In this document: positions 2,118-64,000 of the stretch, piece after piece
How positions within the stretch are numbered: the stretch's first letter is position 1
Layout: the number at the start of each line of letters is the position of its first letter
Notes under the pieces: generated by a model
Told to the model about the DNA's origin: nothing
The model's database searches: none
What the model saw: the letters and a program-made list of their open reading frames with translations, nothing else
From: Thermoplasmatota archaeon
GTDB lineage: Archaea > Thermoplasmatota > Penumbrarchaeia > Penumbrarchaeales > EX4484-36
Direction: 5' to 3'
Assembly (NCBI GenBank): GCA_029932465.1
Contig: JAOZQA010000003.1
Coordinates: 6,477 to 70,476 of the forward strand
DNA: 64,000 nt
Translations under genes and position numbers: made by a program

Positions 2118-2199
2118 GGGAATCACAACTCCACAAAACGTTTATATAGAGACTTCTGGTTTAACGCACTACCTCACAGTTTAAAAAGAGGTGTATCGT

Positions 2200-19723: not shown

Positions 19724-19783
19724 CATATTACCTCCAGATGGCCAGGGGCTTATAAGCATGGGGAATATAAAATATTTGGCAGG

Positions 19784-21934: not shown

Positions 21935-22044
21935 TGGTCCCGGCTCCCGGATTTGAACCGGGGATCTGAGGATCTCTGCGGGGGTCGGGACTGGCCCGAA
22001 GCCTTCTACAGTCCCCCGCTCTAGCCAGACTAAGCTAAGCCGGG
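21935..22044 (-). tRNA. tRNA-Tyr (anticodon GUA) with a ~32-nt intron at the canonical 37/38 position; CCA encoded
   Basis: Manual fold: acceptor CCCGGCU/AGCCGGG, D-arm GCUU...GAGC, anticodon stem GGGGA/UCCUC, loop CUGUAGA, T-arm CCCGG-UUCAAAU-CCGGG, discriminator A + CCA. The extra 32 nt extend the anticodon helix (GGGGGACUG...CAGUCCC..CCCCC), as expected for a BHB motif. Confidence 0.6.
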
Positions 22045-45945: not shown

Positions 45946-46404
45946 TCACCCCTTCTCCTTTCGATACTTTTCAATCTTCCCCCTTCTCCTTATCCTCTTC
46001 TCATCGTTTAAGGGCTCCGTCTGAAGCCACTCCTTCACGATGGACCAGGCGAGCTCAGGGCCGACGACCCTTCCTCCCAGACAGAGCACGTTGGCCGCGT
46101 TGTGCAGCCGACTCATCCTTGCCATATACTCGTTGGTGCAGAGGGCGGCGATCACGCCTTCCACAAGGCTGGCAGCGTTGCACATTCCTATGCCGGTCCC
46201 GCATATGAGTATCCCCCCCTCCGCCTCCCCCCGGGAGACCTTCTCCGCCGCCTTGAAGGCAATATCCGGGTAGTCTACATCCTTGAACTCCATCGTTCCC
46301 ACGTCTTCCAAGAGGTAGCCCTCATCCTCGAGTCTTTCTTTAAGGAATTCCTTCAGGTGGTATCCGCCGTGGTCTGCACCTATGACTATCCTTTTCATTA
46401 TCAC
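45946..46404 (-). CDS. rpiB: Ribose-5-phosphate isomerase B (RpiB/LacAB family)
   Basis: IGADHGG, GILICGTGIGMCNAA with catalytic Cys; ~150 aa. Confidence 0.8.
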   Translation of the reverse strand: MIMKRIVIGADHGGYHLKEFLKERLEDEGYLLEDVGTMEFKDVDYPDIAFKAAEKVSRGEAEGGILICGTGIGMCNAASLVEGVIAALCTNEYMARMSRLHNAANVLCLGGRVVGPELAWSIVKEWLQTEPLNDEKRIRRRGKIEKYRKEKG

Positions 46405-48617
46405 TCCTCCAGGGTCCTTTTAGCTCTCATAAGGCGTACCCAGTAGAAAACAGCTATGAGTAGAGCACCTATGATGAGTGCTGCAAATGAGAGTGTTAGG
46501 ATGTAGTTCATTTCGCCGTCCTCCTCGCTCTCTCCCTTCACTTCAATCTGCGACTCATATATCGTTGTTCCCCGGGGGGTGTAAAGAAACACCTCCACAT
46601 CCTCTCCCTCCTTAAGGGGTTCTGGAAATGTGAGGAGCACCTCCCCGCCCTCCCCCTTTAGGGTGAAGGACTCGTAGGGTCCACCACCTACTCCGCCTCT
46701 TCTCATTCCAGCAAAGAGCTTCAGGTCGGAGTGAAGGGGAGAGGTGGTGTTCACTTCAATGAGTATATATTTGCTACCGGGCTGGATGCCCTTTACTTTC
46801 ACCTGAATGACCTCCCGCAAGCTGAAAACGTGTGCCCTCACAGCGACCTCCTGGGAGAGGTCAGCAACGCTGATGTTGAAGATGTAGGTATGGTTCCCTA
46901 GGAGGGCAGAGGGCTCCCTCGAACCGTTGATGGAGAACGTGATCTTCACCGAATCGCTGCGAGACTCCACTGAATAATTGAGGGCCCCGGGGGCTCCGAC
47001 AACGGCCACGGAGGGGAGGAGGAATCTGTAGATAGGGGTAGTATTTACCCTGAAGGTGATATCCACCTTCACCGGGTCGTCCACGAAGAGGTCAATGTCT
47101 ACCACCTCAGGCTCAACCATAAGCTCCTCGATCTTAACTTTCTTCACCTCCACCGGGTAGGTGAAGAGGAAAGAATTCCCGGAGTGGTTGATGAACACAT
47201 AGAGGGTATAGTTCCCCTCCGGCGTCTCCGGGAGGAGCTCAATGAAAAGAGTGCATGAGAGCGGGAACTCAGGTGTGGCCGTGACCTCATCTAAAAGCCG
47301 TGTGAATATGGTTGAGTTATCACCCTTTATTATTATCCTGCCGGATATGTTCCCAGGGGTATAGATGGTGGCAGAGAGGGTGTAGCATGAGAGATATCCT
47401 GGGTAGAGTTCAAGGCGGTCAACGGGCTCTCCCTCCTCGTCTAAAATCTTAAGACTTACCATCCCCTCCGCGTAGTATATCTTGGCAATGTAGCCGGTGT
47501 AAGCGGTGACATATATCTCGTTCCCTTCAATTATGGAGTCAAAATCTCCTATCAGCACTCCGGCGAGCTCGAACTCCTTTATGTTGGGGGAGCTCCAGAC
47601 TACCCTTGTCTCTATATTCCCACTCACCTCGATCCCCAGGGCGAGGATGTTGGAGTACCCTGTCATGACGGTCACGTTCACCTCCCCGTCCACACTGAGG
47701 GGGCCAGTGGAGAGGCCCTCAAGTCCTCCTTCCCCTTCGGTATCATATATGACCTCTTCTCTGAGCACTCCTCCGGAGTAGCTCAGATGATATGCTTTTC
47801 CGGAGAGGCTCGTGACCACAAGCTCCGCTCCTTGGTCGTCGTCCAGCAGGTTGGCCTCCTTCACGTTGGTCAGGAGGAAGCGGTCCGTAAGAAGGCTCTT
47901 CTGAACGATACCCCCGCTGCTGTTCATCCATATTTCAATCAGGGTGGAATTCTGGGGATAGTCCAAGGTGGCGTAGAGTTCGCCCCCGGGGAGAGTGGGG
48001 TCGAAGTCGGTGTAGAGGAGGCTTTTCACGGGGGCAGAGGTGTTCAGGACGAGGTGCTCCCAGAGGCCCCCTTCCCTCCACAGGACGATTATGTGCGGGG
48101 TCTTCCAGTCCCCGAAATAGAGCTCCTCTCCGCTCACGTTCTTAAGAAGATCCCCCTTAGCCATGGCGAATAACTCGGCCTCCCAGGTGAATACCGTCTC
48201 GGTGCTCTCAAGAGCTAGTGAGCCGTCAAAGGTCAATATCCTCACGGCGCCCGAGTATCCATAAACCATCACCTGATTCTCCCTTGTGAAGTTCCCCCCG
48301 GGCTGCTCGATCCCCATTACAGGGTTCTCCCCCTCTTCATCGGGCTCTTCACTGAATACTATACTTGCCCCCTCCTTACCCTCCTCCTTCAGGAAGACTT
48401 TTCCGTTCCAGTCGGCGAAGACAAGCTCTCGCCTGGAGTCGGAATTCAGGTCGGTGATGGCAAGGGCCCCCGTAAGTGGCGTCTGGGACTGGTAGACGAT
48501 CTCAGATGCGAACTCCTCTGGGAAGGAACTGGCTCCGGATGCAGTCTTCAGGGATAGAAAGGCCGAGAAGAGAACAAGCAGCGTCAGGATGATACATTGG
48601 TGGAGGCGTTTGCTCAT
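46401..48617 (-). CDS. Secreted sequon-rich surface glycoprotein-like protein (beta-propeller/FG-GAP-like N-domain, Ig-like repeats, C-terminal TM anchor)
   Basis: Signal peptide MSKRLHQCIILTLLVLFSAFLSLKTASG from ATG 48617. More than 20 N-x-S/T sequons. C-terminal LTLSFAALIIGALLIAVFYWV then RLMRAKR. TATA AATTTATATA (48641-48650) lies 28 nt before the ATG. The 3' end overlaps the rpiB start. Confidence 0.6.
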   Translation of the reverse strand: MSKRLHQCIILTLLVLFSAFLSLKTASGASSFPEEFASEIVYQSQTPLTGALAITDLNSDSRRELVFADWNGKVFLKEEGKEGASIVFSEEPDEEGENPVMGIEQPGGNFTRENQVMVYGYSGAVRILTFDGSLALESTETVFTWEAELFAMAKGDLLKNVSGEELYFGDWKTPHIIVLWREGGLWEHLVLNTSAPVKSLLYTDFDPTLPGGELYATLDYPQNSTLIEIWMNSSGGIVQKSLLTDRFLLTNVKEANLLDDDQGAELVVTSLSGKAYHLSYSGGVLREEVIYDTEGEGGLEGLSTGPLSVDGEVNVTVMTGYSNILALGIEVSGNIETRVVWSSPNIKEFELAGVLIGDFDSIIEGNEIYVTAYTGYIAKIYYAEGMVSLKILDEEGEPVDRLELYPGYLSCYTLSATIYTPGNISGRIIIKGDNSTIFTRLLDEVTATPEFPLSCTLFIELLPETPEGNYTLYVFINHSGNSFLFTYPVEVKKVKIEELMVEPEVVDIDLFVDDPVKVDITFRVNTTPIYRFLLPSVAVVGAPGALNYSVESRSDSVKITFSINGSREPSALLGNHTYIFNISVADLSQEVAVRAHVFSLREVIQVKVKGIQPGSKYILIEVNTTSPLHSDLKLFAGMRRGGVGGGPYESFTLKGEGGEVLLTFPEPLKEGEDVEVFLYTPRGTTIYESQIEVKGESEEDGEMNYILTLSFAALIIGALLIAVFYWVRLMRAKRTLEE

Positions 48618-48640
48618 GTGGTATTCTCTATATGTGAGGG

Positions 48641-48650
48641 TATATAAATT
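48641..48650 (-). promoter_or_regulatory. TATA box for the leaderless surface-protein gene
   Basis: AATTTATATA (minus strand), centred ~28 nt upstream of ATG 48617. Confidence 0.35.
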
Positions 48651-48686
48651 GTGTTGAGGGGGCAGTGCAAGTTTAAACCAAAAATA

Positions 48687-48700
48687 CAATAAATAAAAAG
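48687..48700 (+). promoter_or_regulatory. TATA box (CAATAAATAAAAAG) for the leaderless pilin-like operon
   Basis: Centred ~28 nt upstream of ATG 48720. Divergent from the box above. Confidence 0.35.
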
Positions 48701-48719
48701 CTCTGTGTAAACCCCGCCC

Positions 48720-49154
48720 ATGGCGAAAAAAAAGATGGATTCTGTGCTCTCCCGCTACAGGGAGGTCTCCCCGAGAGCGGTGCTCCTCACGTCGCTGTCG
48801 GTCATAGTCATCGTGATGGCAGCCTTCAGGTATGCAGAGGAGAGAAGGGAAGAGGTGTTCCGTGAGGCTGCCGAGGGGGAGTACAGAAGGTTTCTTCAGG
48901 AAGCAGGGGTCTTCTCCGGGGGAGATGTGGGGGTTCTTGCGATAAACCTCACCAGGGCGAGGGAGTTCGCCCCCACGGGGAAGATGGGGATTGAGATTAG
49001 AATTGAGGTGTATGGGAGAGAAGAACTTCACCTGAAGAAAGGGCCCTTAAGTGGCCCTTATGAGTACCGCCGAGAGACTAGGCTTCTTCTCTACGACTCC
49101 GGGGTGTACCTCCCAGCCATCCTGGAGTTCAGGGTGAGGGGGGAGGCGCCTTGA
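48720..49154 (+). CDS. Small membrane-anchored protein with a putative class III (type IV pilin-like) signal peptide
   Basis: Charged N-terminus, then RA|VLLTSLSVIVIVMAAF. This matches the [KRDE][GA][ALIFQMVED][ILMVTAS]3 prepilin-peptidase pattern followed by an ~18-aa hydrophobic helix. 144 aa. Confidence 0.4.
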   Translation: MAKKKMDSVLSRYREVSPRAVLLTSLSVIVIVMAAFRYAEERREEVFREAAEGEYRRFLQEAGVFSGGDVGVLAINLTRAREFAPTGKMGIEIRIEVYGREELHLKKGPLSGPYEYRRETRLLLYDSGVYLPAILEFRVRGEAP

Positions 49155-49576
49155 AGATTACTATTCATCCCATGGAGGCCCTCGCAGTTGCCCTGGCCGC
49201 CACTGCCCTCATCATTACGGTCGCATCTCCACATCAGGGAAGTGAAGATGTGGGTCCGGATCCTGAACAGGTCCGGGAGGGCGTGTCAGCTCTTCTTTAC
49301 TCCACTTTGAGCTACCCGGGGGGAGCTACAGTGACTGTGGGGGAGGCGCTTCTCCTGGCACTCAAGGAGGGGACGGTACCAGAGGACCTTCGGGAGGAGG
49401 TCTCATCCCGACTGGACTTCCTCTTCTCTCCACTGAAGTATCAGGTCATATTCTTCTCTGGGGAGGACAGCCAACCCCTAACCTTCGGGGACTTTGAAGG
49501 GGGTCAGCAGCACCTCTTCCGCTACACCTTCTCAGGGGAAGAGCTCGGGGTTATTGTTTCATTGGAGGTGAGATAG
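49151..49576 (+). CDS. Small membrane-anchored pilin-like protein
   Basis: TTG start 6 nt after GGAGG and overlapping the upstream stop. N-terminus MKITIHPMEA|LAVALAATALIITVA (weaker class III match). Confidence 0.35.
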   Translation: MKITIHPMEALAVALAATALIITVASPHQGSEDVGPDPEQVREGVSALLYSTLSYPGGATVTVGEALLLALKEGTVPEDLREEVSSRLDFLFSPLKYQVIFFSGEDSQPLTFGDFEGGQQHLFRYTFSGEELGVIVSLEVR

Positions 49577-52230
49577 TGCTGAGGAGGTTCCGGAAGCAGC
49601 TCCCTTCCATAACCTTAGCGGTCATCTCCGTTATCGCTTTGGTCATCACAGCGCTGCCCGAGGGACGCAAGGAGGGTAAGCTCAGCCAGACCAATGAAGT
49701 CTCGGCGGTGGAAGGCAGAATCGAGGCGTATTTAATGGAGGAGACCGGGCGCCTCCTAGCCGACCCGGGATTCTCAGAGAACTCAACAGGTCTCACAGGA
49801 CTACTTGAAGAGCTTTCGGAAAGACTTACAGAGGGCGGAAGGAACAGAACTTTCACGACCAGAGATTTCCGTTTCCGCCTGGAGGATTTTTCCGCCGTAA
49901 TCCTGCCTATCTTTGGCAACTCCACCCCCTCTGGGGTGGGGAGATACACACTCCTTTGGGGTGAAGGGGGGGTCCCGGCGGCCCTGCCGCTCAGCGGTCC
50001 CCCCTCCCCCCGGGGGATAATATTCCACGTAACCTACACTGCCGCCTTTCAGGAGGGGAGGGGGACCGAGAGGCTCTCAGGGACGATACAATTCGACTAC
50101 TACACCCCCTACCTCACCGCCATATCAGAGTTCTTCTCCTTCGCGAGCGGTAGCAAGGTGACGCTTGAGGGATACCTGGCCAATATGCTGAACGCCCTGG
50201 TGAGGACAAGGGCTGCCCTAGGTGTGGGTACTAGGAGTGGAGACAGCATCTTCGAGCTCCTCTCCCCCCTGGACCTTGAACTCGCCCTGAACATAGCCCT
50301 TCTGCTCTATGAAGTGGAGACCTTCGGCAGCCCGGTGGAGGGTTCCGTTGGAGCCTTAGAGAGGAACTTTTTCAACGTTTCCAGAGGGTTCTCCTCGGAT
50401 GGAGAGGTCAACCCGACCGGTTTCAGAGTCTGGAGCCAGCAAGAGAAGGCGCAGTACAGAGAGTACCTCACAAGGAGGGTCACACTCCCGGATGCCACAA
50501 AGAGAAGGATGGGAGAGCTTTTAAGGAGCGCCGAGGAGAGGGGGCTCCTGTCCCCATCTGAACTTCTCCTGCTCTATCTGGTCTACGACAGGGCTCTTGA
50601 GGAGAAGGGCATCACAGTGGATCCCTTTGACGAAAAAAGCGTTCTCTCCGAGAAGGGATTGGCCAACCCAAGGGACCCCTACTCCACCTTTGACCCAGCG
50701 AACCCGGCATGGATGGCCTCTCTAGCCCCCCAGGACTTTTGGGGCAACCTGACCGGCCTGCACCCCGGCGCTCAAAGAGGTGTTCAGGGCGCTCAGGGCC
50801 CCTTCACAGTGAAGAGAGAGCAGACATACCTTGTCCTGGGAAAAGACTTTGAGGCTGAAGGCCTCTATACCCCCCGGGGCTGGTATACCAACGTCGACCT
50901 CTCAAGGAACGAATCAGAACTTATAAATTACAACAACACGCCGACCCGCGGGGGTGGTGATTGCGAGGAGGAGACCCGCTGTGGGGGAGTACCTCTGCCA
51001 CCCACACCCCCCGACCACGACTTCAGGATAAAATGGGAGATTCGGCTGAGGGGTGAGATCCGCTATACCTTTTCCCTCCCCGGGGGTCCTGCGGTGCTCA
51101 GGAAGGAGGTTGACCTCTCACCAGCCTTTACAGTCTTCTGCTGGTACCCCGAGCGCCCCACCTTCCCGGCTGAGGAGATCACTTTCAGGAACATAAACAC
51201 AGGCGGTGCTGTTCAGACTCAGAACTACTCCATGTGGCTCATAACTCCTGTGGCCAATGCTACGGAGTACTACCTGAAGTACATTTGGCAGGATCTGAGG
51301 GACTTTTTCGGTTGGGGTTACATGCTGGGATCGCTCCTTCGATCTTCCGCTGCCCGAGATATGACCTCATTGCCTGAGGCGGCCCTTGACATCTACGCAG
51401 TAGGGGTGGAGGCCACATCCGCGGGGAGACAGGAAAGGCTTTCAGGAACCTACGCCAGCGTGAAACACTTCATGGAGAGGTACATAGCTGGCAAGGGTAT
51501 TCACCTCTCCGATCTAGGCTATATTGAAGAGGACTCCTTCAACATGACCCTATCCTACCACACAGAGACAGACCTCTTCATCGTAACCGCAACCCTAAAT
51601 AGTGTACGGGTGAGGCTGGAGCTCTACCGAGCCCTGTCTTCTCCGGAGGGGGAGGTCTTCATGGAGATTGCCCCTTCTGGTGAGGCTAAGGACGAGACCG
51701 GCGTTGTGTACAGCGTGAGGCTTCCCCTGTACGGGACCACCCCAGAGACCCCCGGGTTTACACTTGAGGGGGGCTCTCTTTCTGTGAGAGGGGACTCGGA
51801 GGTCCTCACACTTACCGCGAAGGAGCAGCTCTCGGGCTGGTCTCTGTACAGTGAGATAGTTCAGGGCCCAGCAGCGTCGTTCTCATCCGGTGTTACGTCT
51901 CTAAACGGCAGTGTCCTCTGCTGGCAGAGGTCACTTGTGATGGCTGAAGAAGGCACTCCTCTATCTGGCGAGGTGGAGGGGGTTATTACCCACTTCCTTG
52001 AGGTGAATCCCCCTCACCCCTCCCTCCCCTGGTTTTTCTCTCTTCTCGCCCGGGAGGGGGGGAAGCTTTACCTGATCCTCCCCCTGTGGTACCTTATTGA
52101 CCCTGCTCTTCTGGGCGGAGTACTCACGGCCCCTGCGGGAGCTAACATCTCAGATGCCTATATCTCAGTAGAACTGAAATTCACAGGTGGTGGAGGGGGG
52201 GTAGCTTCCCGCTTCACACTGGGTATTTGA
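49576..52230 (+). CDS. Large (884 aa) N-terminally membrane-anchored extracytoplasmic protein of unknown function
   Basis: GTG start overlaps the upstream stop. N-terminal LPSITLAVISVIALVITAL anchor. No recognisable catalytic motifs. Several sequons. Gly-rich C-terminal TGGGGGV. Confidence 0.5.
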   Translation: MLRRFRKQLPSITLAVISVIALVITALPEGRKEGKLSQTNEVSAVEGRIEAYLMEETGRLLADPGFSENSTGLTGLLEELSERLTEGGRNRTFTTRDFRFRLEDFSAVILPIFGNSTPSGVGRYTLLWGEGGVPAALPLSGPPSPRGIIFHVTYTAAFQEGRGTERLSGTIQFDYYTPYLTAISEFFSFASGSKVTLEGYLANMLNALVRTRAALGVGTRSGDSIFELLSPLDLELALNIALLLYEVETFGSPVEGSVGALERNFFNVSRGFSSDGEVNPTGFRVWSQQEKAQYREYLTRRVTLPDATKRRMGELLRSAEERGLLSPSELLLLYLVYDRALEEKGITVDPFDEKSVLSEKGLANPRDPYSTFDPANPAWMASLAPQDFWGNLTGLHPGAQRGVQGAQGPFTVKREQTYLVLGKDFEAEGLYTPRGWYTNVDLSRNESELINYNNTPTRGGGDCEEETRCGGVPLPPTPPDHDFRIKWEIRLRGEIRYTFSLPGGPAVLRKEVDLSPAFTVFCWYPERPTFPAEEITFRNINTGGAVQTQNYSMWLITPVANATEYYLKYIWQDLRDFFGWGYMLGSLLRSSAARDMTSLPEAALDIYAVGVEATSAGRQERLSGTYASVKHFMERYIAGKGIHLSDLGYIEEDSFNMTLSYHTETDLFIVTATLNSVRVRLELYRALSSPEGEVFMEIAPSGEAKDETGVVYSVRLPLYGTTPETPGFTLEGGSLSVRGDSEVLTLTAKEQLSGWSLYSEIVQGPAASFSSGVTSLNGSVLCWQRSLVMAEEGTPLSGEVEGVITHFLEVNPPHPSLPWFFSLLAREGGKLYLILPLWYLIDPALLGGVLTAPAGANISDAYISVELKFTGGGGGVASRFTLGI

Positions 52231-53619
52231 TCAGATGCGCACTCCCAGGGATTTCTCAACGAGTCCTAAGACCTCATCGCACCTTCTCGCAGAGTCTCCG
52301 ATATAGTGCAGGGGGTCTAGTATCTCAGCCAGCTCCTCTCTGCCGAAGAGCTTACCCACCACCCCATCCTTCAGAGCCGCATCCAGCATGTGTTGATCTC
52401 TCTCCTGGGCTCTCATGGCTATGCGGCGCACTACCTCGTGTGCCTCCTGCCTCCCGTATCCCTTCTTTACAAGCTCTATCATGAGTGCCTCAGCCATGAC
52501 CGCTCCTTTGGTCAAGTAGAGGTTCTTCAGCATTTTTTCTCGGTCCACGCCGAGGCTTCCGATGGCACCTTTCAGTTTCACAAGGATATCGTCCGTCAAG
52601 ATGAGAGTGTGGGGGATAGTGAACCTCTCCGCTGATGAGTTAGCCAGATCCCTCTCGTTCCACTGGATGGAACTTTCAAAGGTGGGGGTGAGGTTCGCCC
52701 TTACCATTCTGGCGAGGCCTGTTATGTTCTCAAGGGTTATTGGGTTCCTTTTGTGGGCCATAGTGGATGAGCCCACTTGCGATTTCACGTCAAAGACCTC
52801 GTAGAGTTCGCCGATCTCGGTTCTCTGAAGTGTCCTTATCTCCGTGGCCACCTTCTCCACTGTGGTGGATATGTTGGCCATTAAGGAGATGAGCTCGTTG
52901 AAGCGGTCCCTCTGTACTATTTGGGTGGAACCCTCTTCCCTCCCCAGCCCTAGCTTTTCAAGGAGCCTCCTCTCGAACTCCACGGTATCCTCCACCCCAA
53001 GGGCCTTGAGGGCCGCACCGGTTCCGGTGGCTCCCGACATCTTACCTACAAGGACCCTGGCTTTAGCCTCCTCAAGCCTCTTTAGGTGCCTCAAGAACTC
53101 GGCGGTCCAGACCGAGAGTTTAAGACCTAATGTTATGGGGACTGCGTGCTGGCCATGAGTCCTCCCTATCATGGGGGTCTCTCTGTGCTCCTTCGCCTTT
53201 CGGGCGAGCTCCACTATGAGCCCTTTGAGGTCCTCTTCTATCACGTCAAGGGCGTCCTTCAGCTGTAAGGCTATGGCGGTGTCAATGATGTCATATGAGG
53301 TGACCCCCAGATGGATATACCTACCCGCGTCGCCTCGGCAGACCTCCGTGAGAGCCTTCACAACGGCCATTAAGTCGTGTCTGATCTCCCCTTCTATCTC
53401 CTCGACCCTTTTGAGTGAAACATGTTCTAAAGTGGCCTTCTCCCTCACCTCTTGCGCCGCCTCCGGGGGAACGAGACCCTCTTCTGCAAGCTCCTCCAGC
53501 AGGGCAGCCTCCACCTTGAGGATGTTCCTCACCCTCGCCGGGTGGGAGAGTATTCTCTTCATCTTATCTCTGCCGTAGCGAAAATCCAATGGACAGACAG
53601 GTTCGAAGAGGTCTTTCAT
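52231..53619 (-). CDS. purB: Adenylosuccinate lyase
   Basis: Fumarate-lyase signature GSSTMAHKRNP; 462 aa; PurB-type N-terminus. Confidence 0.85.
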   Translation of the reverse strand: MKDLFEPVCPLDFRYGRDKMKRILSHPARVRNILKVEAALLEELAEEGLVPPEAAQEVREKATLEHVSLKRVEEIEGEIRHDLMAVVKALTEVCRGDAGRYIHLGVTSYDIIDTAIALQLKDALDVIEEDLKGLIVELARKAKEHRETPMIGRTHGQHAVPITLGLKLSVWTAEFLRHLKRLEEAKARVLVGKMSGATGTGAALKALGVEDTVEFERRLLEKLGLGREEGSTQIVQRDRFNELISLMANISTTVEKVATEIRTLQRTEIGELYEVFDVKSQVGSSTMAHKRNPITLENITGLARMVRANLTPTFESSIQWNERDLANSSAERFTIPHTLILTDDILVKLKGAIGSLGVDREKMLKNLYLTKGAVMAEALMIELVKKGYGRQEAHEVVRRIAMRAQERDQHMLDAALKDGVVGKLFGREELAEILDPLHYIGDSARRCDEVLGLVEKSLGVRI

Positions 53620-55213: not shown

Positions 55214-55879
55214 ATGATAAATATTTCAGATGAAGATCGCAGGGCGATAGAAGAGGACCTCAAGAAACACATGAAAGGAGGCATTCACATTCTCTACTAC
55301 GGGGGTGGAGGGGAGTGCCCTTACTGTGAGGATACCCTTGAGATCGTAAAGCTCCTAGCCTCTCTCACCGACAAGATCCATGTGGATATAATTGAGGACG
55401 AAGAGCACCCTCTTTATAAGAAGTACACCCCAAAGTACGCCCCGGCCATAATACTTCTCGAGGAGGACATGACCGACACGGGAATACGCTTCTACGGTAT
55501 TCCGGCGGGGTACGAGTTTGAGAGCCTCATGGACGCCGTAATCAACGTCTCAAAAGGGGTAGATGATGTTCCCGAGGAGCTTGAAGAAAGAATAAAGAGG
55601 CTTAAAAAGAAATACATCCTCTCCGTTTTCATCACACCCACGTGCCCCTACTGCCCAATATCAGTGAAGATAGCTCACAGGCTTGCCTATATCAACAGAA
55701 ACATAACTGGAGAGATGATAGAGGCAATAGAATTCCCGGAGTTGGCCCAGAAGTTTGAGGTCATGGGGGTACCGAAAACCGTTATTTTCCATGACGGTGA
55801 CCATCAGTCCTTTGTGGGTGCCTACCCTATAGAGGAGGTTGTGAACTTCCTTGAGGCCATAGAGAGGGGGCCCGATTAG
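55214..55879 (+). CDS. Protein disulfide oxidoreductase (two thioredoxin-fold units, each with CPYC)
   Basis: Two CPYC active sites ~110 aa apart in a ~220-aa protein. This is the architecture of archaeal PDO / glutaredoxin-like proteins. Confidence 0.8.
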   Translation: MINISDEDRRAIEEDLKKHMKGGIHILYYGGGGECPYCEDTLEIVKLLASLTDKIHVDIIEDEEHPLYKKYTPKYAPAIILLEEDMTDTGIRFYGIPAGYEFESLMDAVINVSKGVDDVPEELEERIKRLKKKYILSVFITPTCPYCPISVKIAHRLAYINRNITGEMIEAIEFPELAQKFEVMGVPKTVIFHDGDHQSFVGAYPIEEVVNFLEAIERGPD

Positions 55880-58800
55880 GGTTTTGAGATGGCGCTCTTC
55901 AGCTTCCTTACCTTCTCGCCGCAGCTCATCAGGTAGCCGCTGTTATAAAGGTTCACACAGGAGAGGAAGGTTTTCAGGTACGTTGATATGTCTACACCTG
56001 CTGCCCTCCTGTTGTCTAGAACCGTTGAGAATGAAATCAGGGTGGTCTTGAGGTGTTTGGCTAGATGGAGGTAGTTGTAGAGGGTTTTGGAGATGGATCT
56101 GAGGAAGTAGGTGGCCCTGAGGATGTCATCGACCCGTAGGTAATAGGAGGCCTTCTGCAGCTTTTTCTCAATAAGTGCCTTATCGGGCAGGTCCTTCGCC
56201 TCTTCTAACATTTTTCTGACCAGCACTATAAACTCCTCATAAACCTCCCTGGAGACGGGCTCTCCTTGGCCCACCGTGTCTAGCAGCCCCGGGAGAAGTA
56301 TCACCCAGCTGTACTCCTTTATATAGAACTCTTCATCCCCTATATGGCCGAATATGAACTGAGGAGAACTGTCAGGTTCCCCGGGGCTTACAGGATGTGT
56401 CTCCTCCTCTGTCACCTCAGGGGCTTCTCTCCCCTTCGGCTCAGGGACAGTCCTTATGAGGGCCCCAAGGCCCTGCGGGGAGGTTTTCTTCTTGAGCCCG
56501 TCATCCATGATCCTAGCTTTCATATAGGCTTCAGATGCCAGACGTGATATTCCTTTGAACCCCGTTCTCTTCGGAGCCTTTTCTTTCTTCTCCTTTTTCT
56601 TATCTCTTTCCGCCGCCTTTTTGAGGAGGTCGTCTCCGCTACGGAGGGACTCCTCCAGTGCTTTGAAGTTCCTGTCATACAATGCCCTTTTGATCCTCTC
56701 CGCCACCCCAAGGGACCTTTTCTCCCCTGTGGATGTGAGCTGTTGGTACAGCTCCCATGACTCCTCCACCATCTGCATCCTTCTCTTAAGTTCTGAGAGC
56801 TCTGAGTTGATGTTCTGGAGCCTGCCAACCTCTAGTGTAAGGGATTCCTCCCGTGTCTCCCTTTCAAGCTCCTCGAGCCTTTTGAGAAACTCCGCTCTGA
56901 AATCGCGCCAAGGAGGATGCTTTAAATCCCTAAGTTGCAGTGTTATGAGGTCATAGAGGGACTCTATCTTGCTGTATATGTTCTCCACAGTCTGCATGTT
57001 CTGCGTCAGATTAAGTTCGCTGAGGATCTTCTCAAGGTTCTCAGTGGCTTCCTCAACGCTCTTTACGTGCCCTTCTTTGAAGGCCTTCTCTGCCTCCTCT
57101 TTGATCCGCTCGATTTCTTCCATTCTGGAGCTTTTTATCGTCCCCTTCTTTATAAGCGATGTAGCTAGGGCTTCGGCCTCTTCATAGACCTTCAAAAACC
57201 GTCTGTTATAGAGGACCTTCAGATACAGGTCCTTAGTCTCCGCCAGGAGTTCCTTCAGGGCCTTCATCTCCTTGTTCTCTCCCTCCAGGCGTTTCCTGTA
57301 CCTCTCCAGAGAAGCTAGAAGAGCCTCTGCGTTCTCCCACCCTTCCGCAAGCTTCTCACACTTCTCTATATATTCCCTTATGTTACCCGCTACGGTAGCC
57401 TTCTCTACCATCAGCATTGAGAGGAGCTCTTTCTTCACCGCACTCCCTTTCTCTATAAAGGCTTTGATATTGTCCACCCCAGCGCCTTTCAGCGGGGTGG
57501 AAAGAGAACGGATGAATTTCAGGAATCTCTCCGGGGGATCCATTACCATGGAGAGCTCATTTACAATTCCCTCAAGCTCTTCCTTCAGTGACTTTCTATA
57601 CCTCTCAAAAGCTCCTTTTAAGGCCTTGCGGGCTCTTTCTTCAACTTCCCTATAAAGGGCTACAGACTCCAGTATTTCTCCGTTCTGATACAGGGACCAG
57701 GCCCTTGCCCCCTCCGTCTGGACATCTATCAGGACATCTGGATCGCTTGATATCTGAAGGGTCTCCTGAATGATGTTCCTTATTCTCTTCTCGGTCTCCC
57801 GAACGAATTTGTTCAGACAATCTCTGCTCTGTCTTTCGTAGAGCTTTTTAATGCTGTGAGCGTAGAACATTCTGAAGATATCTGCGTGCTCCCTCTGCGG
57901 ACTGCCCATCTCCCCGTAACCTGCCTCTTTTGCTACCCTCTCCACATCGGGGCAGATATCCTTTATTGTTCTCGCCACCTCCGAGGCGTTCTCCGTAACC
58001 TCACGGATGATTTCTGCAAGGCTCTCTTCATACGTAAGAAGCATACTTGTCATGTCTGTCAGTGCTTCCATGTAGAATGAGTAACTATCCTTCAAAAGGT
58101 TTCTAGCCTTTGCCTCGAGGGAGACAAAACGGGTGTAGATGAGATACTTCATCTCCGACCTCTTGAGCTCTCTTATGATGCTGCTCAGGACGTCCATTAC
58201 AATCTCTTTACTGCAGGAATCCTCCTCTGGTGTTATCCTATCCAGATACTCTTTTACTATCTGAGAATATATTCCTCCTACCCTGTCGTACGATTCCCGG
58301 GATATGAATTTCTCTAGGATGTCGAGCACTGATTTGAAGTAATACCTCTCCGGAGCGAAGGATTCTGCGCTCAATGAGATTATTTTCAAAATGATAGAAC
58401 TATTGAGGATGCCTATCGCTCTCCTTCTCTTCTCTTCTTTCAAAACCGCCTCGAGTTCATTGAAAAGTTCGTTGATGCGGTCAAAATATGTCTGAGGGTT
58501 GACCCCCCTCCTCATCTCTTCCATCTTTTTTAATTCATCTCTGTAATCAGATGTGTCGTATCCCAGCCTCTCAAGTGAGGTGAGCTTGACCTCAATTTCC
58601 TTCAGGAGGTAATCGCCCTCCTTCACCCAGAATGTTCTGTTGATCTCCTCTATCTCTTTCTTAATTTTAAGGGCACCTTCTATCTTCTTCTCCACTCCGG
58701 GGAGGTTCTTGACAGTTTGCAGTTCTTTTCTCAGGTAACCCACTGGAAAGTCGTTTTTCTCCATCTCGTTCAGCTCGTCTCCTATGCTTTTCAGAAACTC

Positions 58801-60213
58801 TTCGAAGCTCTCCCCGAAGTTCCTGTAAAAGTTGTCTAGAAAGTGAAAATATAGGTCAAAAAAGAGGTAGTATTTTTCCGGGGAGCTCTCCCTCCTGTCG
58901 ATCTCTTCAAAGCTGTTGAACAACTCCTCGGAAATAACCCCATGGTCGTGGAGAAGCTGGACGGTTTCGTACTTCTCCTCATATAGCTCCTCCATCTCCT
59001 CAGTGCTCTTCTCCATAAGGTATTTTATGGTCATGTTGAGGCGTTCAATGGTGTGAGCAGCGTCAAAGGTTAGACCTTTAGCGAGCTTCTTTTCAATTAG
59101 TTTGATATTCTCCTCAATATAGACGTTCACCTCTGAAGCGAGCCACTTGTCCTTTACCTTTTTTATCTCCTCTATGTTTTCTTTCACATTTTCCGTAAGC
59201 GATTCCATTTCAAGGAGTATTGTGCAGAAGTAATCCACATATTTTTCGGGAGGCGCTCTTCTGACAAGATCCTCAAGGTTTATTGACCTGTTCACTATGC
59301 TCTTAAAGAGATGCTTCAGCCTATCTTCATAGGAATCCCTGTAATAGTTCAGGTTCAAAAGACGCATTAGCCCCTCTTTGAGCTCAAGGACCACACCGCT
59401 CCATCTGATGTGTGGATCAACGGAATATCCTCTTTTGAGGGCCCTGACCGCTTCTCTATACTCTCCTCTGAATATGTGCGCCTTTGCGAGATATATGTAT
59501 GCTAGGGCGTCGTCTTTGTTCTGCTCAAGATAGCGCGAAAGCGTTTGCAAGGCCGCAGAGTATTCACCGAGGGAGATGGCTACGGAGGAGTACAGCATCT
59601 GGAAATGGGGTGAATCGGAGAACTTGCTGCGGTATCTCTGCAGAAGGAAATACGCTTCAGGAAGGTTCTCCTCTTTGAGGAGAAGTCTCACCACCTTGAC
59701 GCACTCTGTGCTGAAGTTTATATTAAGGTTTTTAAGGAGAGGAAGGAACCTCTCCGTGACCTCTTCAACCCCGTCCCCCTGGAACAGGTTGATGGTCTCA
59801 ACTAGGCAATCAACCCACCTTATATCTCCTTTCTCCAGTGCTGTGAAAAGCTCCTTTTTTGCTTCCCGCGGCATATCGCTAAAGAACTTTAGTTTCGCAA
59901 GGATGAGATGAGCTTCGGGGCTTATATGTTCGGGCTCCGCCTTCCCAAACTCCCTATCTAGGATTTTCTCAGCCTTCTTGTACTCACCCTTCTTGATGTG
60001 GATCAGTGCATGTATGAGAGAGAGGTCACTGCACTGGGGAAACTCTTTCGCAAGCCTTGTGACAGCGTTCTCATAGACATCCAGGTCTTTCTCTATCATC
60101 TCCTCTGTCGGGAAGATCGTTAGAGTGTTCTGGGAGAGGCTCCCTCGGCAGTTCGGACAGACCTCCCCTGTCGAGCCATCTTTTAATTCCATCCCACACA
60201 GCAGGCACTTCAA
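55876..60213 (-). CDS. Giant (1,445 aa) soluble protein: N-terminal C4 Zn ribbon, TPR-like repeats, and >900 aa of coiled-coil / alpha-helical repeats. Function unknown.
   Basis: TTG start 4 nt after GGAGG gives CLLCG-x13-CPNC. TPR-like helices (AYIYLAKAHIFRGEYREAVRALKRG). A long E/K/L-rich heptad-like sequence. No TM, no P-loop. GC lower than the flanking genes. Confidence 0.6.
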   Translation of the reverse strand: MKCLLCGMELKDGSTGEVCPNCRGSLSQNTLTIFPTEEMIEKDLDVYENAVTRLAKEFPQCSDLSLIHALIHIKKGEYKKAEKILDREFGKAEPEHISPEAHLILAKLKFFSDMPREAKKELFTALEKGDIRWVDCLVETINLFQGDGVEEVTERFLPLLKNLNINFSTECVKVVRLLLKEENLPEAYFLLQRYRSKFSDSPHFQMLYSSVAISLGEYSAALQTLSRYLEQNKDDALAYIYLAKAHIFRGEYREAVRALKRGYSVDPHIRWSGVVLELKEGLMRLLNLNYYRDSYEDRLKHLFKSIVNRSINLEDLVRRAPPEKYVDYFCTILLEMESLTENVKENIEEIKKVKDKWLASEVNVYIEENIKLIEKKLAKGLTFDAAHTIERLNMTIKYLMEKSTEEMEELYEEKYETVQLLHDHGVISEELFNSFEEIDRRESSPEKYYLFFDLYFHFLDNFYRNFGESFEEFLKSIGDELNEMEKNDFPVGYLRKELQTVKNLPGVEKKIEGALKIKKEIEEINRTFWVKEGDYLLKEIEVKLTSLERLGYDTSDYRDELKKMEEMRRGVNPQTYFDRINELFNELEAVLKEEKRRRAIGILNSSIILKIISLSAESFAPERYYFKSVLDILEKFISRESYDRVGGIYSQIVKEYLDRITPEEDSCSKEIVMDVLSSIIRELKRSEMKYLIYTRFVSLEAKARNLLKDSYSFYMEALTDMTSMLLTYEESLAEIIREVTENASEVARTIKDICPDVERVAKEAGYGEMGSPQREHADIFRMFYAHSIKKLYERQSRDCLNKFVRETEKRIRNIIQETLQISSDPDVLIDVQTEGARAWSLYQNGEILESVALYREVEERARKALKGAFERYRKSLKEELEGIVNELSMVMDPPERFLKFIRSLSTPLKGAGVDNIKAFIEKGSAVKKELLSMLMVEKATVAGNIREYIEKCEKLAEGWENAEALLASLERYRKRLEGENKEMKALKELLAETKDLYLKVLYNRRFLKVYEEAEALATSLIKKGTIKSSRMEEIERIKEEAEKAFKEGHVKSVEEATENLEKILSELNLTQNMQTVENIYSKIESLYDLITLQLRDLKHPPWRDFRAEFLKRLEELERETREESLTLEVGRLQNINSELSELKRRMQMVEESWELYQQLTSTGEKRSLGVAERIKRALYDRNFKALEESLRSGDDLLKKAAERDKKKEKKEKAPKRTGFKGISRLASEAYMKARIMDDGLKKKTSPQGLGALIRTVPEPKGREAPEVTEEETHPVSPGEPDSSPQFIFGHIGDEEFYIKEYSWVILLPGLLDTVGQGEPVSREVYEEFIVLVRKMLEEAKDLPDKALIEKKLQKASYYLRVDDILRATYFLRSISKTLYNYLHLAKHLKTTLISFSTVLDNRRAAGVDISTYLKTFLSCVNLYNSGYLMSCGEKVRKLKSAISKP

Positions 60214-60305: not shown

Positions 60306-61592
60306 TCAGCGGCGCGAAGGGGCTGTAAAGACCTCCTTCAGCTCGCTCAAAGTGAGGATCTCCTGACTCCTCCCTTTAAGGTCCCTGATTAGAACAACTC
60401 TTCTTTCCGCCTCCCGCCTCCCGATCACCACCACCTTCCCGTAACCCCTTTTCAGGGCCGTTGTCAACGCTTTCCTCAGCCCGCCCTTCACCTCCAGGAC
60501 TTCAACACTCACCCCCGCCTCCCTTATTCTGAGGCTTGCCTCAAGGGCGTAGGCTTCGATGCCCTCGTCAAGTACCGTGAGGAGAACCTTTTCCCTCTCG
60601 CTCGTCCCTTTTATCCCCCTCTCCGTGAGGCTAAGAAGAAGGCGATCGAAGCCTATGGCAAAACCTACCCCCTCCAGGGGCTCCTTCCCTAGGAATTTGA
60701 AGACATACTCCCCACCTCCGCAGATCTGTTTCTCGGCGCCCAGCCTGGGGTCTTCTATCTCAAACACCACACCGTCGTAGTAATCGAGTCCCCTAACCAC
60801 CCCCGGGGAGATGCTTGCGGATTGGGCACCTAGGGCGCGCAGGATTTCTACCATTCTCTGAAGGTTGCCGTACATCCTCAAGAGCTCTTCCCTTATCCCC
60901 CCCTCCACCCCCTGTTGCTCCAATATACTGCTTAATGCTTTCTCTGTAGGGGATGTGGCAAAATCACGGTATAGAGCGGCTGCCCGGGGGTCTGCAGTGG
61001 AGAGGGCATTTTCAAAGGCTTCTGTGTCCCCCCTGTCGAGGGCTCTCAGCATTTCCCCTTCCGTCTCACTGTCAACTTTAAGGAGGCCGAGGAGTCTTCT
61101 TATCAGTGTGATGTTGTTCACTTTCAGGGGAAGATTTTCAAGGCCTGTTGCCCTGATAGCGGTATAGGCAGCCATTATGGTGTCTAGGGTTCTTAAAGAT
61201 GTCCTTCTGCCTATCGTTTCAGCCCCCATCTGCCAAAACTCTCTGAACCTTCCTTTCTGAGGCCGTTCGTACCTAAAGCAGTTCTCAAAATAGTATATCC
61301 TAACAGGCTGCGGTCTCCTGGAGAGGCTCTCCGAGAATAGCCTCATGGTTGGGGCGGTGAGTTCAGGCCTCAAAGCGAGCCTCCTCCCCCCTTTATCCTC
61401 AAAGACGTAAAGCTGCTCGACGATGTCCTCACCCGAGCGCTCGGTGAAGAGCTCAGCGTGCTCGAAGGTGGGTGTCATAATCTCCTCAAAACCGAAGCTC
61501 TCCAGAGCCTCCCTCATGGCGAGCTCGGCCCACCTTCGCCTTTTCATCTCCTCCGGGAGGAAGTCCCTTGTGCCTCTGGGCCTGGTAAACAT
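60306..61592 (-). CDS. hisS: Histidyl-tRNA synthetase
   Basis: Class II aaRS motifs, RPRGTRDFLP N-terminus, C-terminal anticodon-binding domain. ATG 61592 lies 6 nt after AAGGTG. Confidence 0.9.
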   Translation of the reverse strand: MFTRPRGTRDFLPEEMKRRRWAELAMREALESFGFEEIMTPTFEHAELFTERSGEDIVEQLYVFEDKGGRRLALRPELTAPTMRLFSESLSRRPQPVRIYYFENCFRYERPQKGRFREFWQMGAETIGRRTSLRTLDTIMAAYTAIRATGLENLPLKVNNITLIRRLLGLLKVDSETEGEMLRALDRGDTEAFENALSTADPRAAALYRDFATSPTEKALSSILEQQGVEGGIREELLRMYGNLQRMVEILRALGAQSASISPGVVRGLDYYDGVVFEIEDPRLGAEKQICGGGEYVFKFLGKEPLEGVGFAIGFDRLLLSLTERGIKGTSEREKVLLTVLDEGIEAYALEASLRIREAGVSVEVLEVKGGLRKALTTALKRGYGKVVVIGRREAERRVVLIRDLKGRSQEILTLSELKEVFTAPSRR

Positions 61593-61680
61593 CAGAAACA
61601 CCTTGATTAGACGAAGGGGAGAATCTATTTAATAATTCATATCCCCGGAGCTATGCCTTAACACCCCTTAATAGTCAAGA

Positions 61681-61690: not shown

Positions 61691-61904
61691 ACTTTACATT
61701 CACTTTATTCTGCCTGGAAAGGCCTCCGCCCCGTCAAAGGGTGTGGAGAAAATTTATTAAGTGGTTGTGTATAACCACGCCTGCTCAAGTGCACTCCGTG
61801 AATTGGAGCGTTCACGGAGGAAGGAGCTGAGACCGAGGCAAGAGCCAGTGAGGTCGTTGAATGCTCACATCATACGCATGTTGGACGAGTACTGGACTGG
61901 TAGT

Positions 61905-64000
<2,096 letters not shown>

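Follow-up and report, generated by a model that had tools for sequence, protein, structure and literature searches.

Here, we find that a divergent four-gene locus of an uncultured hydrothermal Thermoplasmata archaeon, in which P1 on the minus strand lies opposite g1, g2 and g3 on the plus strand, is best explained as a cell-envelope module specific to a lineage of uncultured Thermoplasmatota and predicted to encode a membrane-tethered, N-glycosylated complex. Our confidence in this reading is evenly balanced. The envelope role that we propose would differ from that of a polymerising fibre of the type IV pilus type, and the pilus of pilin-like proteins that the original prediction had placed at this locus is unsupported by prepilin motifs, Pfam models, fold searches and the conservation of the putative cleavage site.

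Gene layout and the divergent promoter region

The divergent surface locus was reproduced from the sequence of the window, i.e. the whole 64-kb stretch of DNA that was analysed, with all open reading frames at the positions originally predicted (Table 1). Both predicted stop/start overlaps were also found: g1 and g2 share 4 nt (TTGA, in cctTGAag at 49151-49154), and g2 and g3 share a single nucleotide within gaTAGTGc at 49574-49578. These overlaps are kept in the relative L002, where g1 and g2 meet in ATGA and g2 lacks the Met of the later 'MEA' position; the start of g2 is thus the upstream TTG. By their sequence, g1, g2 and g3 are translationally coupled. Upon comparison of the four genes with a relative of 66-84% identity, codon position 3 was found to be only 50-60% identical, compared with 78-88% for positions 1 and 2. 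Since the third position diverges most, all four genes are real and under purifying selection.

Table 1. Features of the divergent locus, with positions given in the 64-kb window.
Feature	Position	Strand	Description
P1	46401-48617	minus	738 aa from internal ATG of an 876-aa ORF
Promoter spacer	48618-48719		102 nt, AT-rich, between divergent P1 and g1
TATA-like box TATATAAAT	48641-48649	minus	24-32 nt ahead of the P1 ATG
TATA-like box AATAAATAAAAA	48688-48699	plus	21-32 nt ahead of the g1 ATG
g1	48720-49154	plus	144 aa, ATG start (ORF)
g2	49151-49576	plus	141 aa, TTG start (ORF)
g3	49576-52230	plus	884 aa, GTG start (ORF)

The spacer between P1 and g1 has a GC content of 0.38 versus 0.533 for the window and carries one TATA-like box for each direction, while no Shine-Dalgarno sequence (GGAGG) was found before the start of either P1 or g1. 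Together, the distances of the boxes and the missing GGAGG make the geometry compatible with leaderless P1 and g1 transcripts, and we predict leaderless transcription from both sides of the spacer. Of the two leaderless TATA promoters that had been proposed for a spacer of about 100 nt, the TATA-like boxes were thus recovered, and their leaderless nature corresponds to a fit of the geometry. Positions 48618-48709 of the spacer are 96.7% identical to L002, the coding DNA of which is merely 69-78% identical.

Predicted topology and relatives of the encoded proteins

Pfam and NCBIfam scans of the window proteins P1, g1, g2 and g3 gave no matches, and nothing meaningful came from PDB sequence searches in which P1 or the profiles of g1, g2 and g3 served as queries. 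P1 has an N-terminal signal-like segment, a C-terminal TM helix (706-724) and a short basic tail; it contains 16 sequons where 4.0 are expected, a number reached in 0 of 5000 shuffles, and 16 of its 28 Asn residues lie in N-x-S/T. This agrees with the original description of a sequon-rich protein of 738 aa with a signal peptide and a C-terminal TM segment. An AglB/STT3 oligosaccharyltransferase gene is located inside the same window. We predict P1 to be a type I surface glycoprotein with a Sec-type signal peptide, an FG-GAP-like beta-propeller (residues ~30-400) and a beta-rich stalk. Homologues of P1 are about 800 aa long and occupy the equivalent divergent position in 17 of 18 related loci. 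The Pfam model FG-GAP_3 (PF13517) matches seven of eight homologues, two of them above the gathering threshold (31.2 and 31.5 vs 26.9). The window protein itself does not match this model and aligns to the FG-GAP_3-matching homologues over residues 1-505 (BLASTP, best E 4e-28). With FG-GAP or integrin-alpha-type proteins P1 shares a predicted N-terminal propeller, a beta-rich stalk, one C-terminal TM segment and a short basic cytoplasmic tail, but it is archaeal, lacks a detectable beta-subunit partner and stays under the Pfam threshold. P1 resembles them in architecture, which does not imply orthology.

The three products of the opposite strand each have a single N-terminal hydrophobic segment with K/R ahead of it, which in g1 spans residues ~20-36. 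In g3, 12 sequons were counted versus 3.9 expected (0 of 5000 shuffles as high), 12 of 27 Asn residues lie in N-x-S/T, and the sequon at N561 ('ANATE') is common to 15 of 29 g3 relatives. The earlier view of g3 as an N-terminally anchored protein of 884 aa with no known domains is borne out by its one hydrophobic segment and the empty Pfam and NCBIfam scans. It founds an unannotated family with a conserved core at ~200-700 and a set of invariant charged residues. This family was found by an exhaustive phmmer search; when g3, g1 or the g3-family profile was searched by word index, only the query and one relative of 66% identity came up. Two g3 relatives touch DUF7286, the accession of which adjoins that of DUF7285, at an E of only 0.08. 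We also considered g1, g2 and the N-terminal domain of g3 as paralogues and rejected the idea, as the hhalign probabilities were 5-12% and concerned the TM region only.

For g1, an AF2 model (pLDDT 79.6) predicts an ectodomain in which a long helix leads into a six-stranded sheet, and the alignment of its family shows a conserved C-terminal P-x-x-L-E-V/F motif. DUF7285 (PF23956) matches seven of the 12 members of this alignment. Two of these exceed the gathering threshold of 27 bits (L017 with 31.3 and L019 with 30.3 bits) and cover profile positions 3-111 of 112; the other five score 18.6-23.2 bits. The window g1 has no match to DUF7285 in the Pfam scan and is tied to the matching relatives by hhalign (E 4.7e-5, probability 68%), by synteny and by the common C-terminal motif. 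Judged from these comparisons, g1 is probably a distant relative of DUF7285. The family is one of unknown function, and membership gives no mechanism. A literature search for DUF7285, DUF7286 and their sister families found no mention of them. The families DUF7283-7289 may sit in pilB/pilC loci of Halobacteria; two haloarchaeal plasmid pilin loci, found through a pilin N-terminal motif, contain no DUF728x genes, and tblastn of one g1 relative against plasmids gave no match. Proteins of 168-185 aa (a TM segment, then L-P-E-L) occupy the position of g2 in 12 loci. Their homology to g2 has weak sequence support (hhalign E 0.009). A Pfam scan of the most distant counterparts of the small proteins (L026, L028 and L030) gave no match.

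Is the arrangement of the four genes a common feature of this lineage? A pattern-limited genome scan with the g3-family profile yielded 18 loci in Thermoplasmatota genomes; an earlier scan with the g3 sequence alone had yielded none. The order P1 on the minus strand, then g1, g2 and g3 on the plus strand followed by purB, is kept in most of the 18 loci, so that the synteny in relatives that the original prediction had proposed to examine does recur. The neighbours of the module are housekeeping genes. As the g3 homologues at these loci are only ~24-33% identical, the module has been held together for a long time. No g3 homologues were found in cultured Thermoplasmatales by the pattern-limited scan.

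Pilin signals and rival explanations

The FlaFind-type pattern for class III prepilin signals reads [KRDE][GA][ALIFQMVED][ILMSTAV][TSA], where a short, positively charged N-terminus ends in [KR][GA] and is cut off directly ahead of the hydrophobic helix. None of the N-termini of the window proteins g1, g2 and g3 matches it, and the predictor-type half of the refuting test that accompanied the original prediction came out negative for a prepilin signal. The original prediction had seen a close match in g1 and a weaker one, at 'MEA', in g2. The likeness of g1 proved superficial: its R-A-V-L-L fails the pattern at +3, the n-region is 20 residues long, and opposite Ala20, which would be position -1, homologues carry R, S, V, L, I, P and F, so that R-A is unconserved. 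Among relatives, a FlaFind-type motif at the TM start occurs in 0 of 14 for g1, 0 of 14 for g2 and 2 of 29 for g3. Pfam models of the Pilin_N, Class_IIIsignal, archaellin and FlaG types gave no match up to an E of 1 in the window proteins and in 12 + 10 + 29 family members, and pilins were not top-ranked in fold searches. We conclude that R-A plus a hydrophobic stretch at one N-terminus is insufficient for a prepilin call; whether the site is conserved among homologues can be checked cheaply and decides the matter.

Most g1 relatives point to another kind of N-terminus. A strict lipobox, [LVI][ASTVI][GAS]C, as defined in PMC12462473, is found in nine of 14 g1 relatives and a loose form in 11 of 14; as in archaeal lipoproteins of the AliA/AliB pathway (PMC12462473), it ends a signal-like hydrophobic stretch. 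In these relatives the lipobox-like LAGC is followed by five further hydrophobic residues past the Cys, and a plain TM helix would therefore explain them equally well. The window g1, g2 and g3 have no lipobox. We considered g1 as a lipoprotein in the present organism and ruled it out, since g1 and its close relative lack any Cys; the idea is retained for the other relatives.

The gene layout, together with the C-terminally anchored neighbour, resembles the 'pilin sets' of Makarova et al. 2016 (PMC4858521), an observation that weighs against an envelope reading. The euryarchaeal clade-2 sets described there (arCOG06117-04652-07777/06552-03926-02911) consist of several small genes that overlap, the products of which have one N-terminal TM segment each, and a large gene behind them. 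They may be surrounded by housekeeping genes and distant from ATPase/TadC modules, like the A. fulgidus set, which lies by itself beside ribosomal-protein genes and has a 959-aa arCOG03926 protein among its products. The pilins of ATPase/TadC modules are often encoded in trans, and S-layer-like proteins with a C-terminal TM segment frequently accompany such systems (PMC4858521). Thus, g1-g3 could be minor pilins or an adhesin of a non-canonical type IV pilus system with its machinery elsewhere, next to an S-layer-like P1, and both the long N-terminal helix with a beta-sheet in the g1 model and the R-A immediately ahead of its hydrophobic stretch would suit this. In the locus rows considered here, the first gene of the set (arCOG06117) bears no 'yes' in a column in which the other pilin-set arCOGs do; should this column give the FlaFind status, arCOG06117 would be FlaFind-negative there, and the summary table of the same supplement marks it 'yes' (PMC4858521). 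The likeness to our locus is one of layout. Most proteins of the clade-2 sets, however, are FlaFind-positive, with class III signals and Ig-like all-beta domains. At our locus, the motif is missing from g1-g3 and nearly all relatives, the -1 residue is unconserved, the pilin and archaellin models stay silent in 51 family sequences, and the lipobox-like motif of most g1 relatives suggests a lipid or TM tether. Moreover, g1, g2 and the N-terminal domain of g3 are mutually dissimilar in profile-profile comparison, unlike paralogous pilin sets. The window ORFs with Pfam results include no T2SSE, T2SSF or prepilin-peptidase gene, and a T2SSE-type Walker-A ATPase was not found within 8 kb of any of the 18 related loci. 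We therefore consider a pilin set unlikely.

A canonical two-component S-layer, with g3 or P1 as the lattice and the others as stalks or anchors, is rated as rather improbable. In the SlaA/SlaB system of Sulfolobales, a large canopy protein and a membrane-anchored partner are encoded side by side. Indeed, our module encodes large, strongly sequon-rich proteins with membrane anchors. It is present as a single copy, lineage-wide and in a core-genome position, and it has consensus-like TATA boxes for both directions within a very strongly conserved spacer. Against this, the proteins have no similarity in sequence or fold to any solved S-layer protein, SlaA/SlaB-type proteins included, and the cultured Thermoplasmatales examined by cryo-ET have no S-layer (PMC12448462). 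More generally, no sequence or fold link was found between the module proteins and known S-layer or envelope proteins. The invariant charged residues of g3 are also compatible with an enzyme or with the binding of a ligand, a second observation that weighs against an envelope reading. g3 might be an anchored extracellular enzyme or receptor, e.g. for glycans or polymers, with g1 and g2 as accessory proteins and P1 as an independent adhesin that happens to share the promoter region; we regard this as the least probable of the explanations weighed here.

A candidate module of the cell envelope

Our preferred explanation remains that of an envelope module. We propose that P1 would be exported by a cleavable Sec signal, retained by its C-terminal TM helix, and would display an integrin-alpha-like FG-GAP beta-propeller on a beta-sandwich stalk, while g1, g2 and g3 would be inserted via uncleaved N-terminal signal anchors with the N-terminus inside. 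In most g1 relatives, the lipobox-like LAGC could provide an alternative N-terminal tether. Owing to their translational coupling, g1, g2 and g3 would be produced in fixed proportion and would most likely form a hetero-oligomeric complex at the cell surface, which may also contain P1. Such a complex might serve as a structural or adhesive element of a glycoprotein coat, i.e. of an 'exterior protein layer', or as support of an S-layer. We infer from sequence the physical association, the glycosylation in vivo and the structural role of the four proteins.

Two known systems provide a frame for this proposal. Cultured Thermoplasmatales without an S-layer are covered by an unordered glycoprotein coat of ~20 nm, resolved by cryo-ET, the composition of which is unknown (Gaines et al. 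2025, PMC12448462). This exterior protein layer is, as we propose for the module, a dense membrane-associated glycoprotein coat, and the likeness is one of description. The archaellum stators ArlF/ArlG (FlaF/FlaG), which remain at the membrane and link it to the surface layer (summarised in PMC12448462), resemble the small products of the module in their size of ~150 aa, N-terminal hydrophobic helix and beta-rich ectodomain. Unlike for these stators, however, there is neither a FlaG/FlaF Pfam match nor an archaellum operon at our locus. A more specific version of the envelope reading would join the integrin-alpha-like propeller protein P1 and three N-tethered subunits in a single hetero-oligomer, which would serve as the chief building block or the membrane anchor of a clade-wide glycoprotein coat and in which g3 would have a fold that is absent from the PDB; we advance it only tentatively and with low confidence.

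Thermoplasmatota abound in sediments, vents and oceans, yet they are mostly uncultured and their cell-surface proteins are essentially unknown. The species that carries our locus occurs in many samples. The module presents a concrete candidate for an envelope component, being conserved at ~24-33% identity, placed in the core genome behind a constrained promoter and composed only of anchored predicted glycoproteins, and g3 adds a sizeable family that has neither an annotation nor a structural relative. If the more specific version given above is true, the module would be the first entry point at the level of genes to the 'exterior protein layer' or wall of these archaea, with an envelope built differently from S-layers as well as from type IV filaments.

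The divergent locus and its relatives

Every ORF of the original prediction was found in the window (see Table): a 738-aa minus-strand protein, P1, opposite three plus-strand genes, g1, g2 and g3, with products of 144, 141 and 884 aa. The proposed stop/start overlaps were confirmed by the junction sequences, cctTGAag between g1 and g2, where the TTG start lies within the TGA stop, and gaTAGTGc between g2 and g3. The same four-gene set is carried by a relative found in two Logan assemblies (L002 and L003), whose first junction reads ATGA and whose second is an identical TAGTG. Since this relative lacks a Met at the alternative 'MEA' start of g2, that start was ruled out and the upstream TTG is the correct one. 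Protein identities between window and relative are 66% (g1), 70% (g2), about 70% (g3) and 75-84% (P1), while codon identity is 50-60% at position 3 and 78-88% at positions 1 and 2, a pattern showing that the four genes are real. In addition, g1 matches 'MAG: hypothetical protein J7K08_02595 [Thermoplasmata archaeon]' at 100% identity, and numerous metagenomes of hydrothermal-vent and Guaymas type, as well as assembly GCA_021158585.1, have contigs with the locus.

Features of the locus and of the surrounding window
Feature	Position	Strand	Remarks
P1	46401-48617	-	738 aa counted from the ATG opening MSKRLHQCIILTLLVLF; same start in public gene calls
TATA-like box for P1			TATATAAAT, 24-32 nt upstream of P1 ATG
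Spacer segment	48618-48709		89/92 positions (96.7%) identical to L002/L003
Second AT-rich box	48669-48679		AAGTTTAAACC; would leave g1 a 20-nt leader
TATA-like box for g1			AATAAATAAAAA, 21-32 nt upstream of g1 ATG
g1	48720-49154	+	ORF
g2	49151-49576	+	ORF, TTG start
g3	49576-52230	+	ORF
purB	52231-53619	-	directly after g3, opposite strand; same order in 13/18 related loci
Giant ORF	2191-6480	+	1429 aa; PQQ-like beta-propeller and PKD
AglB/STT3 ORF	6606-14093	+	2495 aa, unusually large for an archaeal OST; AglB/STT3 oligosaccharyltransferase N-terminal domain, then long CarboxypepD_reg, SdrD_B and CARDB beta-sandwich array
Giant ORF	15947-19759	-	1270 aa; BNR repeat
tRNA	21938-22044	-	107 nt by Rfam (50.8 bits), unreported by ARAGORN; probably contains an intron
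KaiC/GvpD-like P-loop ATPase	23321-24691	-	456 aa
Giant ORF	55876-60213	-	1445 aa; TPR-like
Histidyl-tRNA synthetase	60306-61601	-
23S rRNA	61903-64000	+	5' two-thirds of the archaeal gene

Is this arrangement common among related archaea? A profile-guided genome scan with the g3 family returned 18 loci, all in Thermoplasmatota, Thermoplasmata or Thermoplasmatales MAGs, whose gene content was counted by our own ORF calling, phmmer and BLAST clustering. All 18 encode a g3 homologue and 17 a divergent P1 homologue of about 800 aa; a g1-like gene was found in 10 by BLAST clustering and in four more by position and alignment, and a g2-like gene in 12, its place being filled in three distant loci by another two small N-anchored proteins. 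The g3 proteins of these loci are only about 24-33% identical, so that the synteny between the putative envelope module and the purine-biosynthesis gene purB is unusually deep. The flanks are housekeeping genes, with RpiB and the RFC small subunit on the P1 side and adenylosuccinate lyase (PurB), PdxS and a thioredoxin-fold protein on the g3 side; CinA, PdxT, a cytidylyltransferase, a radical-SAM protein and archaeal AAA ATPases are further conserved neighbours across loci.

An exhaustive phmmer search with g3 gave 42 representative clusters, the closest listed relative (P0004) being 44% identical and the others about 27-35% (930-1150 aa). Named members are all 'hypothetical protein'; the common core spans g3 residues of about 200-700, and invariant positions include R210, R212, D233, E235, N239, P280, R284, W286, E290, D373, R468 and W487. 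One subgroup (P0006-P0010, P0012-P0014, P0016-P0018 and P0021) ends at the very C-terminus, usually in (S/E/V/K)PLW, with variants ALW, ILW and LLW, and carries an N-terminal D-L-(S/T)-(K/R)-x-A-V-A motif; g3 of the window has neither. P1 homologues match FG-GAP_3 and g1 relatives match DUF7285, in both cases two above the gathering score, the latter two over nearly the full profile. The window g1 is tied to these relatives by hhalign (E 4.7e-5), synteny and a C-terminal P-x-x-L-E-V/F motif. Two g3 relatives reach DUF7286 at E 0.08, and homology of g2 with its positional equivalents has weak sequence support.

The window as a whole is archaeal and rich in large surface or repeat proteins. The 23S rRNA gene begins about 300 nt after the histidyl-tRNA synthetase gene, with no 16S gene upstream of it in the window; because the synthetase gene and not 16S precedes it, the rRNA genes appear unlinked here.

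The divergent spacer

P1 and g1 are separated by 102 nt with a GC content of 0.38 versus 0.533 for the window. Of the two leaderless TATA promoters proposed earlier, a TATA-like box was found before each start, and no GGAGG precedes either start in the spacer sequence. An archaeal TATA box usually lies about 25 nt from the transcription start, so at the observed distances both transcripts would start at or beside the start codon; judged from this spacing, leaderless transcription is plausible. The coding DNA flanking the spacer is only 69-78% identical to L002/L003 (50-60% at third codon positions), and constraint on the whole spacer is much stronger than on the genes under its control, suggesting that promoter or regulator sites are tightly packed there. 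In the more distant relatives L015-L031, a promoter-like element, TGTACCG-N(2-4)-A/T-rich TTTAAAAAG, lies about 60-120 nt upstream of g1-like genes (e.g. L021 3640-3700, L031 6340-6420) and is followed after about 40-60 nt by GGAGG(G)T right before the start. Leaders with Shine-Dalgarno sites are accordingly present on these distant g1-like genes and absent from g1 of the window.

Topology, anchoring and the proposed prepilin signal

P1 has a signal-like N-terminal segment and a C-terminal transmembrane segment (706-724) followed by RLMRAKRTLEE; g1, g2 and g3 each have a single N-terminal hydrophobic segment with basic residues ahead. Sequons (N-x-S/T) are enriched: they take up 16 of the 28 Asn in P1, against an expectation of 4.0, and 12 of the 27 in g3, against 3.9, counts reached in 0/5000 shuffles in either case. 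The sole Asn of g1 is a sequon kept in the relative, and N561 of g3 ('ANATE') is common to 15/29 family members. Based on this topology, the sequon enrichment and an AglB/STT3 gene in the window, 35 kb from the locus, the products are very probably extracellular N-glycoproteins, and the surface assignment of the original prediction holds.

Its pilin assignment found no support, as every direct prepilin test was negative. The N-terminus of g1, said to match the class III signal closely, does read SPRA|VLLTSLSVIVIV, but a FlaFind-type pattern fails at +3, and the n-region has 20 residues. In a 16-protein alignment of the g1 family, GKR, ARS, GRS, TAV, TPL, RVI, GRP and NTF stand at 'PRA', and the putative cleavage site is not conserved. 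The FlaFind-type pattern matched neither g3 nor g2, where a weaker match had been placed at the rejected 'MEA' start. Counted where the hydrophobic segment begins, it occurs in 0/14 g1, 0/14 g2 and 2/29 g3 family members, and Pfam models for archaeal pilins, class III signals and archaellins gave no match at E up to 1 among 51 sequences of the families.

Instead, 9/14 g1 relatives (11/14 with a looser pattern) carry L/I-A/S-G-C within the hydrophobic stretch, in agreement with the lipobox definition quoted in PMC12462473; such proteins occur in L014-L027 (e.g. L021 3719-4132, L017 2639-3055). In the g1 of the window and of its close relative, four residues are missing at this position and there is no Cys; the family may switch between lipid and transmembrane anchors. 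Whether it is a genuine lipobox or serves helix packing, the element points to permanent tethering and against filament extraction.

In the AF2 model of g1 (3 sequences, pLDDT 79.6), residues 18-61 form one unbroken helix, after which come six strands; a Foldseek search of the PDB returned no match under E 0.1, and pilins were not among its results. For g3 (29-sequence alignment, pLDDT 69, pTM 0.70), the model is confident for about residues 40-710 and runs from the transmembrane segment through a helix/sheet N-domain, a helical core, a beta-rich region and a long helical hairpin to further beta domains. Paralogy among g1, g2 and the g3 N-domain was not detectable.

An envelope module or a pilin set

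The simplest account, to which we give an even chance, is a conserved envelope module and not a pilus. It agrees with the missing prepilin features, the lipobox-like alternative seen in relatives, a position in the core genome and a co-conservation with P1 that runs deep. P1 would be its integrin-alpha-like, C-anchored propeller protein and g1, g2 and g3 three N-tethered ectoproteins made in a fixed ratio from the coupled operon; all four would be glycosylated and stay on the membrane surface.

The strongest rival, a divergent type IV pilus (T4P) 'pilin set', is unlikely because of the uniformly negative prepilin tests. DUF7283-7289 of Halobacteria may lie in loci of this type. The layout strikingly resembles the euryarchaeal sets described by Makarova et al. 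2016 (PMC4858521): small overlapping genes, joined in A. fulgidus by a 959-aa member, standing alone amid housekeeping genes with ATPase/TadC in trans and often near S-layer-like C-anchored proteins. There, too, arCOG06117, the first gene of the sets, lacks in the locus rows the 'yes' mark of the other pilin-set genes, which the summary table gives it. No T2SSE-type Walker-A ATPase lies within 8 kb of any of the 18 loci, and no T4P components were found among Pfam-scanned or Pfam-precomputed window ORFs. KaiC-family ATPases are described in the same source as regulators adjoining some archaeal T4P operons; the KaiC/GvpD-like ATPase of the window lies 22 kb from the locus, and no link between the two was found. 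A true S-layer is slightly less probable still, and g3 as an anchored enzyme or receptor is the most doubtful of these readings.

In summary, a set of anchored surface glycoproteins is already known in kind; new are the four-gene module, which is co-conserved across Thermoplasmatota, and the unannotated 900-aa family of g3, for which no structural relative was found. The pattern-limited genome scan retrieved no homologue from a cultured species. Cryo-ET of cultured S-layer-less Thermoplasmatales has revealed an unordered glycoprotein layer of roughly 20 nm without assigned genes (PMC12448462), and a module of this kind is the sort of component that would be expected in such a layer.
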